DNA of 64,000 nucleotides from Drouetiella sp. Its GTDB lineage: Bacteria; Cyanobacteriota; Vampirovibrionia; Obscuribacterales; Obscuribacteraceae. The translations under genes were made by a program, and so were the position numbers. Below, in pieces: positions 2,195-4,409 of the stretch (the stretch's first letter is position 1; every line of letters begins with the position of its first letter). The DNA is taken from positions 1,642-65,641 of the forward strand of contig DATNPY010000039.1 in NCBI GenBank assembly GCA_036702955.1, in the 5' to 3' direction. The notes beneath the pieces were generated by a model that did not search any database, was not told the origin of the DNA, and worked only from the letters and a program-made list of their open reading frames with translations.

Positions 2195-3244
2195 TTATCT
2201 TGCGTACATCGCCGCTCTCAGACCGTAGCGCAGCAGCCCTGAGAAAACTCGTGGACCCTGTTTTTTGATTTGAGTTTCAACTGGATGTGCTCTGGGGTCG
2301 TTGCCTATGAATGGCTCAGATTTGAGATTGGCGCCCTGAGCAATCTGCCCAGTTGTAGGATCTCTGAATTGCTCATGTTTGTCGTACAGATTTTTTCCGT
2401 AGCTAGAGTAGACCGCCGTGTCGAACTGTTCATAAGGCACAAACGGTCGCATCGCCATGCGCTCGTGCATGAGAACGTCTGTCGTTTTTACGTTACGTGG
2501 CGGAATGTTCTTGCCGGATGGATCGACTGCGCCGGGATTGTAGAAAACGTCTGTGACGCCCAACTTCTTTTGCGCTTCAAACTGGATATCAAAGCCCTGC
2601 ATGCGGCTGCGATTGCTTTCAGCCTTGGAATGGCTCTGCAGGTGCTCCATTTGCATCTGGCTGAACATCTGTTTCTTCTGCACGGTCGAGAGAGATGGAT
2701 TAATCCAGACCTGATACAGTTGCTGCGCCAGCGTCAACTCCTGAGCCAGGTCCGCCGCATTCCAATATCCAGGCAGACAGGTGAGCACAGTACCGTCAGG
2801 AGCCAGCACAAACATCTGGATATTGTGCGGTCCTGCACCATTGGTAGTGTCAACAGCTTGTTCATCGGGTTTATGTTTGCCCGACGCACCGGCATACTTC
2901 TCATGAGAAATGTCATGAAAACCGCAGACGAATTGTTCTTTGAGCATCGAAAAGGCTGGGTCCTGCGAGAGCGACACGGCTCTCAAGCTATTTCCGGCAC
3001 TTCACGTTGCTCCGTCGATTTTGCCGAGAATGTGCAGCCAGAAAATCAACTTGCCTGACTTCTGGGCTTCGTCTTCAGCCTTATTCAGGTTTTTGTACCA
3101 ATCGATGTCGCTGGTCAATGCATGCACGCGCGCTGAGCAAACTTGCCCTTCGAGGACCTTTTCAGCCTGTGCAGCAGGAATGCTCAGCGCGGCGCTGGCT
3201 GATACCAATACCGCAAGCATAGACAGAACCCTGGCTCTTTTCAT
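2195..3244 (-). CDS. secreted thioredoxin-like protein interrupted by one in-frame TGA (candidate selenoprotein, otherwise pseudogene)
   Basis: Track ORFs 3002..3400 and 2195..2986 share one frame, separated by TGA (3002-3004) plus 5 sense codons. ATG 3244 follows GAGGGAG and opens a signal peptide MKRARVLSMLAVLVSASAALSIPAAQA. The lead-in DIDWYKNLNKAEDEAQKSGKLIFWLHILGKIDGAT-TGA-SAGN and the later [21 protein letters not shown] together look like one thioredoxin fold. Confidence 0.5.
2967..2984 (-). other. stem-loop 17 nt downstream of the in-frame TGA (SECIS-like candidate)
   Basis: Minus-strand RNA reads GAGAGC-CGUGUC-GCUCUC. It has a 6-bp perfect stem plus a flanking U-G pair, and a 6-nt loop containing GU that lies 24-29 nt after the UGA. 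Confidence 0.35.
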
Positions 3245-3353
3245 AGAGAGACTCCCTCGTCTGGATGATGTATTAATACCAGCGGGATATGCATTTTTCG
3301 TGAAGTCATGTGGTGGTTCCATTTCAATCAACCGCTTTTGACTGAGGCTATAC

Positions 3354-4409
3354 TTGTCCAGGATTTTACTCAGGGCAGTTCTGATGCGCTTTAATCTCAA
3401 TTCCGGAACGCGCAGTGCCAGACCTCATGCGATAGTCTTGGCGACGCTGCTGATCATCTTGCAGCAGTTCATCGGTTCATTACCTGTTCAGTCGGCAAAT
3501 GTCAATTTGACTGTCAAGAAAAGTCAGCTGCCTTTCGTTTACATCCCATACACATCAGACGTTCACTCGACCACGCTCTCTGCCGAGGCGATTCAGCTGG
3601 CTCAGCAGTTGCACCTGACCGAGCGATTGTTTGAACTGTCGCAATTGAGGAAGGCTCGTGAAGCGGACAAAAGCTCGCTTTCCAGCGAGCAAGTCGAAAG
3701 ATACCGAGATCTGAGAGAGGATGTCACTGAAGTTATCGAACAAACTCGCCTGGAAGTGGATTTTGCGCAGGCTGAACTGGCGCGGGAAATTGCAGTGCAC
3801 AGCGAATTGCTGGCAGCTTATACAGCCGATCGCAACCGCAAAGTAAATCTTTCGAATGCCTGGGGATACCGCACTAATGGTGTTCTCTGGGCAGCTGCTG
3901 AAGGGCTGGACATTCCCACTTATGCACATCCCAAATATTCAATTCCTTCAGGAATTGTTGGAATCGTTGCCGGTCTTGCTCCAAGCGCGTTTTCACTCTA
4001 TGCCTTGCGGCAGGACAGTGGCGGCAGATTCGAGCGTAAGCCGCATCCGAACATGCTTTCGAAGGTGTTCAACTATCATGTCACTCCCGAGCTGGAATAC
4101 CCTGATTCAGTCTGGACATGGCTGAATTCCCAGGCACCAGTCGGTCCGAAAGTAACTCGGTTGGAGTTTTTGATTGACTGGTGGCAGAAAGACGGCAACA
4201 TTCGCTATTTCACTGAAAAACCGACTCATCATCAACTGGACCTGCTGACTGCGACAGCGCAGGATGATTTGACTATCCAGTTGATCTCAGACCGGCTGTC
4301 CATGCTGCGCACCGTCGACGCGATGATACTGGGCATGAACCGCCCGCTTCTCGAGATGATGATGGTGGTGCGTGGCACGAAAGAAATCGGCAAAATCGAA
4401 TCTAAGTGA
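3354..4409 (+). CDS. hypothetical membrane/secreted protein
   Basis: Long ORF, divergent from the 3244 gene. Hydrophobic N-terminal segment AIVLATLLIILQQFIG and a second one GIVGIVAGLAPSAFSLYAL. TTG 3354 follows GAGG; ATG 3384 is an alternative start. No family recognised. Confidence 0.5.
   Translation: MSRILLRAVLMRFNLNSGTRSARPHAIVLATLLIILQQFIGSLPVQSANVNLTVKKSQLPFVYIPYTSDVHSTTLSAEAIQLAQQLHLTERLFELSQLRKAREADKSSLSSEQVERYRDLREDVTEVIEQTRLEVDFAQAELAREIAVHSELLAAYTADRNRKVNLSNAWGYRTNGVLWAAAEGLDIPTYAHPKYSIPSGIVGIVAGLAPSAFSLYALRQDSGGRFERKPHPNMLSKVFNYHVTPELEYPDSVWTWLNSQAPVGPKVTRLEFLIDWWQKDGNIRYFTEKPTHHQLDLLTATAQDDLTIQLISDRLSMLRTVDAMILGMNRPLLEMMMVVRGTKEIGKIESK

Follow-up and report, generated by a model that had tools for sequence, protein, structure and literature searches.

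The selenocysteine insertion sequence (SECIS) of Escherichia coli has an upper stem-loop of 17 nt that lies 11 nt from the UGA (PMC8659212). A list of prokaryotic selenoproteins from 2022 includes 87 families, and one of these is based on Thioredoxin_7: a PDZ domain-containing protein (pfam13899) that has selenocysteine (Sec, or U) in a CxxU motif (PMC9312934). Other predicted selenoproteins that are exported and have a thioredoxin fold include a Thioredoxin_2 thiol:disulfide interchange protein (with a UxxC motif), DsbA-like and DsbG-like proteins, and a Thioredoxin_8 isomerase-like protein (PMC9312934, Table 1). Reviews place the Cyanobacteria among the lineages without the Sec trait (PMC1794560, PMC9312934). 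Here we describe a gene that is interrupted by a TGA codon, from a 64,000-nt stretch of DNA from Drouetiella sp. (contig DATNPY010000039.1), which we will call the window. Drouetiella belongs to the Obscuribacterales, which are non-photosynthetic relatives of the cyanobacteria from soil, freshwater, and wastewater. A search of the literature found no link between selenoproteins and Obscuribacter, Melainabacteria, or Vampirovibrionia, save for the remark that a single protein from Melainabacteria (PWT95605.1) is annotated with Sec.

We are confident, from comparisons of related sequences, that window 3244..2195 on the minus strand is a real gene for a selenoprotein: it is one functional unit, and its product is an exported protein of about 349 residues. 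The UGA at 3004..3002 would be decoded as Sec during translation, and a hairpin within the coding sequence, 17 nt downstream, would be a bacterial SECIS that recruits SelB with Sec-tRNA(Sec) to the ribosome. The product would be a single polypeptide of about 36 kDa that is exported and has a lone selenol in its active site, and it may have a redox activity in the periplasm that proceeds via a mixed selenenyl-sulfide or a selenenic-acid intermediate. The insertion of selenium, the existence of Sec machinery, and the substrate are the parts of this account that we infer.

The putative SECIS is similar to the one in E. coli fdhF in that it is a stem-loop inside the coding sequence, shortly after the UGA, with G/U in its apical loop. 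Unlike in fdhF, the stem starts 17 nt past the UGA instead of 11 nt, there is no bulged U, and the loop is CGUGUC. The consensus that bSECISearch uses (Zhang and Gladyshev, 2005) reportedly has a distance of 16-37 nt from the UGA to the loop, and the loop of the window's hairpin falls inside this range.

Results

A TGA codon conserved across the Obscuribacterales

Two open reading frames (ORFs) on the minus strand, at 3002..3400 and 2195..2986, are in the same frame, and all that separates them is a TGA (3004..3002). The hairpin that follows (GAGAGC and GCUCUC around the CGUGUC loop) places its loop at nucleotides 24-29 after the TGA. The part upstream of the TGA encodes a signal peptide. An earlier examination of the DNA, made without database searches (the sequence-only reading), had reported the split frame, the hairpin, and the signal peptide, and it had proposed a selenoprotein. 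It had also noted that TGA is a genuine stop codon for other genes in the window, such as those ending at 57366 and 37908. Direct reading of the sequence bears out all of these observations, and the results below support the proposal. Of the window's 55 long, non-overlapping ORFs, 23 end with TAA, 18 with TGA, and 14 with TAG. Because 18 of the 55 stop at TGA, a genome-wide reassignment of this codon is excluded. When the window was scanned for other pairs of ORFs that are split by TGA, 29 mechanical cases came up, and the present pair is the only convincing one.

For comparison, we used 79 related loci from the representative genomes of GTDB (one genome per species). This gave us 80 genes, and counting by assembly prefix gave 51 species. 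In 80 of 80 genes, which represent 51 species genomes of Obscuribacterales, TGA is the codon aligned to the Sec column; TAA, TAG, and sense codons do not occur there. Protein identity is 43-86%, and a genome can have as many as 4 paralogues. At 78 loci, the tblastn alignments run through the stop codon and span residues 1-349 of the query. TGA is also found at the Sec column in six divergent loci (L082, L094, L095, L096, L097, and L098). The metagenome-assembled genomes (MAGs) that the 79 loci come from are overwhelmingly labelled as Obscuribacterales or Melainabacteria, and several are labelled otherwise (such as Proteobacteria, Bryobacterales, or Planktothrix). The odd labels are on L003, L011, L012, L016, L020, L027, and L039, and they read Proteobacteria, Planktothrix sp., Bryobacterales, Oculatellaceae, Actinobacteria, and Drouetiella sp. 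The labels from outside the lineage are probably taxonomic mistakes or contamination of the bins.

A single in-frame stop that splits a domain does resemble a fresh pseudogene, and a recent nonsense mutation was the alternative offered by the sequence-only reading. The stop could also be an error of sequencing or assembly. But four independent metagenome assemblies agree exactly on the window's sequence, including the TGA. Also, both halves of the gene are under purifying selection: the ratio of nonsynonymous to synonymous polymorphism (pN/pS) is 0.23 over the 46 codons that precede the TGA and 0.025 downstream of it. Within those 46 upstream codons, 79 of 80 genes have no stop. The exception is L040, which has a TAG at about position 6133 of that locus, 25 codons before its TGA at 6208, where the orthologues have CAA or CAG. 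The TAG is a genuine nonsense mutation or a sequencing error in that MAG. It shows that a relative of the window's gene can carry a real nonsense codon, but it is a singleton at a site that is not conserved, unlike the TGA, which 51 species share at one codon, as do several paralogues per genome. A recent pseudogene is excluded by these observations, and we give practically no weight to an error at the TGA either.

Cysteine at the Sec column of intact homologues

A search of protein databases with the fused sequence matched 363 homologues. Of the best 120, nearly all are just the part that follows the TGA: they have 250-263 amino acids and span 71-74% of the query. A search with the upstream piece found 19 matches, all of which are ORFs that stop at the TGA and have 71-80 amino acids (mostly 78-80). 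Among them, P0121, with 80 amino acids, is 100% identical to the window's upstream piece and is annotated as a separate hypothetical protein. At E <= 1e-3, the family comprises 305 clusters at 50% identity. The members that have names are all described as hypothetical or uncharacterized, save for two automatic labels from JGI that are evidently mistaken.

The homologues that are intact have Cys in place of the putative Sec. The sequence-only reading had suggested looking at this column, and Cys was found there in P0008, P0096, P0100, P0167, and, from Planctomycetota, P0204 and P0212. We confirmed the codons for three of these (TGT in P0008 and P0096, TGC in P0100). P0008 is full length and collinear with the window's gene. 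P0094 has Ser (TCA) at this position, and a few degenerate forms have Ser or Trp. Two further proteins, P0102 and P0144, seem to be intact with Trp at the column, but the codon is in fact TGA and the wrong genetic code was used. In the public gene calls at L082 (1887-3038) and L094 (10-1008), TGA is given as Trp, apparently under genetic code 4 or 25, and the call in L094 includes a second in-frame TGA at codon 2.

P0168, a protein of 446 amino acids (L093, 2001-3341), has a genuine TGG codon for Trp at the Sec column. P0168 is divergent. The family's profile matches two stretches of it, and some of its sequence therefore appears to be duplicated. It may be a copy, neofunctionalised or in decay, that arose from a TGA ancestor by one base change. 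We also noticed that the Cys or Ser paralogues P0096 (L085, 1233-1961), P0094 (L086, 2062-2793), and P0100 (L087, 378-1106) lie directly downstream of a divergently oriented gene of the TerC family, in three of three loci.

Selection on the hairpin

The hairpin is present in all 81 of the TGA-containing genes that we examined, as the sequence-only reading would lead one to expect for a SECIS. It encodes Ala-Val-Ser-Leu at codons +8 to +11, and in 80 distinct genes the choice of codons is nearly fixed: GCC in 79 of 79, GTG in 80 of 80, TCG in 79 of 80, and CTC in 79 of 80. Elsewhere in the family's genes, their usage is 46%, 22%, 24%, and 33%, respectively. At the invariant residues Gly-7, Gly-3, and Thr-1, all four codons are in use. 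We conclude from these alignments that the hairpin is selected at the RNA level. Across the six pairs of the stem, 98.9% of the cells in the alignment are paired, and the changes are 22 from A-U to G.U and one, compensatory, from A-U to C-G. The hairpin belongs to the minimum-free-energy fold of the window's gene (with an unremarkable single-sequence z of -1.5), and it is the only consensus structure that RNAalifold finds. We considered an extended lower stem for the SECIS and rejected it, as it had no support from RNAalifold.

The near-invariant core of the putative SECIS is GAGRGCCGUGUCGCUCUC. We searched the window and the related loci for CCGTGTCG, and 80 of 99 occurrences were in the context of the family's hairpin. 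The other 19 lacked that context and did not point to a second gene family.

In more divergent members, the hairpin persists in altered form. P0172, which is from a MAG of Planctomycetota (L095), has TGA, then 17 nt, and then GAGGGGA-GUU-UCCCUUC: a hairpin of 7 base pairs that lies where the Obscuribacterales one does but differs from it in sequence. In P0151 and P0146, the stems are variants. All three of these retain G at position 2 of the loop. Where the TGA has been replaced, the hairpin is gone. The Cys forms P0008, P0096, and P0100 and the Ser form P0094 still encode the peptide LRAVSLS or something close to it, while their synonymous sites vary, and the predicted stability falls to between -1 and -5 kcal/mol, versus -9.7. 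The fold computed for L085 is disregarded here, since its coordinates were wrong. P0168, with TGG, has no hairpin either.

These results bear on whether the locus might be two genuine genes, with the TGA ending an exported peptide of 80 amino acids and the downstream piece being translated by re-initiation. Gene callers do annotate two ORFs. Furthermore, the GTG at codon +9 is invariant in the Obscuribacterales and is preceded by a purine-rich GAGRG, so these might be a start codon and a ribosome-binding site. However, divergent members have GTT or GGG at codon +9, which are not start codons, yet the hairpin stays. Because of these codons, we do not believe that GAGRG...GTG is a ribosome-binding site with a start. 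The spacer between GAGRG and GTG is just 2 nt, and a ribosome-binding site does not account for the complementary 3' arm, TCGCTCTC, which is just as invariant. The downstream starts that have been called vary from record to record (MRAVSLS, MSLS, VSLS, or MLK). Two separate proteins would also be hard to reconcile with the position of the break, which is inside a single thioredoxin fold; with the signal peptide, which is on the upstream piece alone and would send the halves to different compartments; and with the intact Cys homologues, which are collinear single proteins. Overall, we think that two genes are very unlikely, and we continue with a single gene whose UGA is read as Sec.

A thioredoxin-like fold with one redox residue

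We used AlphaFold (AF2) to model the Cys homologue P0008. The model has an average predicted local distance difference test score (pLDDT) of 79.7 and a predicted template modelling score (pTM) of 0.76. It contains a strand at 64-70, the loop with Cys79, a helix at 82-90, strands at 103-109, 140-145, and 150-156, and a helix at 161-179. This is a beta-alpha-beta ... beta-beta-alpha core of the thioredoxin type. Cys79, which corresponds to the Sec column, lies just ahead of the helix at 82-90, and a helical C-terminal domain follows the core. The top matches for the model from Foldseek were Thioredox_DsbH (7tkv and 3ira), the DsbD-like C-terminal domain (3f9u), AGR3/AGR2, ERp19, and DsbH, with E from 6e-3 to 0.1; the top entries were 7tkv, 3ira, 3f9u, 3ph9, 1sen, and 2ju5.

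Comparisons of sequences to profiles point in the same direction. When aligned to E. coli DsbD-gamma by hhalign (E 0.015, which is weak), T-U-S-A-G falls on W-C-V-A-C, with U over the first Cys. Pfam had no family at E <= 1 for the fused protein from the window. Among 23 members of the family, the recurring matches in Pfam were Thioredox_DsbH (PF03190) in six, with a best E of 0.0017, and Thioredoxin_7 (PF13899) in five, with a best E of 0.035; none of the 23 reached the gathering threshold of either model. NCBIfam had no match for the window's protein or for P0008, and searches of PDB with sequence profiles were likewise empty. The placement of Sec at the N-terminus of helix alpha-1, in the position of the first Cys of a Thioredoxin_7/DsbH-like fold, is supported by the model and the alignments at the level of remote homology. 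So the label of Thioredoxin_7 or DsbD-gamma in the sequence-only reading holds for the fold and for remote homology, but Pfam does not recognize the window's protein.

The sequence-only reading had also placed the TGA at the first Cys of a CxxC motif. The hhalign alignment and the model agree with this position, but a second Cys is lacking. The Sec forms have U-S-A-G, and the Cys forms have C-S-A-[VL] or C-[AG]-A-A. The residue at +3 is neither Cys nor Ser, so the motif is neither CxxC nor CxxS. A TTNGAGPHN loop in the domain is conserved, and it is probably the cis-Pro loop. The Obscuribacterales proteins have other conserved cysteines (in FVCG and TCLPGYW), but these are absent from both the Sec and the Cys forms of Planctomycetota. 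Because of this, the Sec/Cys column is the only universal redox residue.

Points against selenocysteine, and possible read-through to another residue

Some points can be raised against a selenoprotein. First, we did not observe the Sec machinery in the window and about 1.05 Mb of related loci, which, as a sample of only about 0.16 genome equivalents, tells us little either way: ARAGORN found no tRNA-Sec, and tblastn with E. coli queries found no match to SelA, SelB, or SelD. Second, the statistics for the hairpin as an RNA structure are modest. The single-sequence z-scores for folding are -0.7 to -2.2; classical covariation is thin in the Obscuribacterales, with one compensatory pair, because the stem scarcely varies; and a search of Rfam matched no family (there were three matches at the level of chance, with E of 0.5-9, and none was to a SECIS). 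Third, the scores that assign the protein to the thioredoxins are weak (E of about 6e-3 from Foldseek, 0.002-0.04 from Pfam, and 0.015 from hhalign), and the active-site loop in the model of P0008 (residues 77-84) has pLDDT below 50.

One could propose that the UGA is recoded to a residue other than Sec. In a lineage without Sec machinery, the hairpin might promote the reading of UGA by a near-cognate or suppressor tRNA that carries Trp, Cys, or Gly. The lack of Sec machinery in the sequence sampled here and the published view of the Cyanobacteria as lacking Sec would fit with this, as would the genuine TGG at the column in P0168. But P0168 lacks the hairpin, is divergent, and is matched by the profile in two stretches. 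If the residue were Cys, then TGT or TGC would be simpler, and these codons do evolve, with loss of the hairpin. More broadly, Cys in intact homologues at the redox-Cys position of a thioredoxin fold is the classic signature of a Sec/Cys pair, and the hairpin's size, its spacing (with the loop 24-29 nt past the UGA), and the G in its loop fit a bacterial SECIS. So we consider read-through to another residue to be unlikely, and we continue to favor Sec.

Layout of the gene and its surroundings

The ATG at 3244..3242 is likely to be the true start of the gene. All of the homologues that we inspected have an equivalent N-terminus that is basic and hydrophobic, and the predicted signal peptide indicates that the protein's destination is the periplasm or the exterior of the cell. 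The features of the gene are listed in Table 1. We found no sequence match in Pfam, NCBIfam, or PDB for the C-terminal extension.

Table 1. Features of the putative selenoprotein gene, in coordinates of the window.
Feature	Position	Strand	Details
Coding sequence of the putative selenoprotein, complete	2195..3244	-	350 codons: 349 residues including Sec80, then TAA at 2197..2195; frame unbroken but for the TGA
Shine-Dalgarno-like GAGGGAG	3252..3258	-	7 nt before the ATG at 3244; read from the sequence
Predicted signal peptide MKRARVLSMLAVLVSASAALSIPAAQA	3164..3244	-	Read from the sequence
Upstream piece, 80 codons	3005..3244	-	In public records, a separate hypothetical protein of 80 amino acids
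In-frame TGA, putative Sec codon (residue 80)	3002..3004	-	TGA in 80 of 80 aligned genes; Cys in intact homologues
SECIS-type hairpin	2967..2984	-	Arms 2984..2979 and 2972..2967; loop CGUGUC at 2978..2973; starts 17 nt past the UGA
Thioredoxin-like domain (about residues 45-180)	2705..3112	-	Motif T-U-S-A-G; from AF2, Foldseek, sub-threshold Pfam matches, and hhalign
C-terminal extension (about 170 residues)	2198..2704	-	Mostly helical, with an amphipathic basic helix at the end; from AF2 secondary structure

Several antisense ORFs, encoding up to 262 amino acids, overlap the gene on the plus strand (2270-3058, 2940-3341, and 3007-3222). The overlap is mechanical, and the apparent hits to these ORFs in related loci merely mirror the conservation of the sense gene.

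A divergent neighbor at 3354-4409 on the plus strand encodes a protein of 351 amino acids; its N-terminus is hydrophobic, and no Pfam hit is recorded for it. We found no homologue of this neighbor beside any of the 79 related loci. Neighboring genes encode DUF2252, nucleoside deoxyribosyltransferase, PIG-L, and TPR proteins. Across the 79 related loci, we found no conserved neighborhood of the Sec-form genes past the closest relative, L001. Elsewhere in the window, at 36442-40879 on the plus strand, ORFs of 488, 522, and 469 amino acids lie in series, with overlapping stop and start codons (ATGA) at the junctions. All three have matches in L039, in the same order, at 54-57% identity. From its sequence, this run of ORFs looks like a conserved operon.

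Discussion

The family is apparently an undescribed group of thioredoxin-fold selenoproteins that use the canonical bacterial mechanism, in an unexpected lineage, with several paralogues per genome. It had no match in the 2022 list of 87 families (PMC9312934) or in release 20 of NCBIfam, so it would be an addition to the catalogue of bacterial selenoproteins. We also put forward a more ambitious claim, which we view as tentative and as a little short of an even bet: that this undescribed family has expanded within its lineage to between 2 and at least 4 Sec paralogues per genome, in at least 51 species of Obscuribacterales and at least one MAG of Planctomycetota; that it is the first documented systematic use of Sec in the Cyanobacteriota (Vampirovibrionia/Melainabacteria); and that its members are thioredoxin-like enzymes, exported by the Sec pathway, with a lone selenol (U-S-A-G) and a novel C-terminal domain.

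If the family does contain Sec, then the Obscuribacterales would be expected to keep the machinery for decoding Sec, within a phylum that has repeatedly been cited as lacking it. The distribution of Sec bears on the loss or gain of this trait around the origin of oxygenic photosynthesis. Hundreds of database entries would be mis-annotated, whether as a pair of hypothetical proteins or as one protein that reads the TGA as Trp, and recognizing the Sec codon would correct them. The near-invariant core of the hairpin could serve as a probe for the specificity of SelB in this lineage and for additional selenoprotein genes. And an exported thioredoxin-fold protein that has a single selenol, and several paralogues in a genome, would be a tractable target for biochemistry. 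Periplasmic chemistry outside that of the characterised selenoenzymes is possible; for example, these proteins might be 1-Sec peroxidases or reductases.

How does this family compare to known selenoproteins? NF041199 (trx7_PDZ_seleno) is the NCBIfam model for the PDZ family with CxxU (PMC9312934), and like our family, it describes a selenoprotein with a Thioredoxin_7-type fold. The only protein in our family to match this model was P0096, at 11.3 bits (E 0.12) versus a cut-off of 300. Unlike NF041199, our family does not have a PDZ domain, the putative Sec is first in its motif (U-S-A-G) rather than last as in CxxU, and the C-terminal domain is different. The exported thioredoxin-fold selenoproteins that are already listed (PMC9312934) have UxxC motifs and clear Pfam domains, whereas our family lacks a resolving Cys at +3 and is not covered by a model in Pfam or NCBIfam. 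What it shares with them is Sec in place of the N-terminal active-site Cys and a signal peptide.

Finally, the family resembles the Thioredoxin_7/Thioredox_DsbH proteins (DsbD-gamma, DsbH, the N-terminal domain of DUF255/YyaL, ERp19, and AGR2/AGR3) in the lead-in W..L..A...A....K.I and in having its redox residue at the start of helix alpha-1. It differs from this group in that the loop from beta-1 to the redox residue is about 5 residues longer, in its U/C-S-A-G motif, and in its extra conserved C-terminal domain of about 170 amino acids. Within the group, AGR2, with its CxxS motif, is similar to our family in having only one redox-active residue in the motif.

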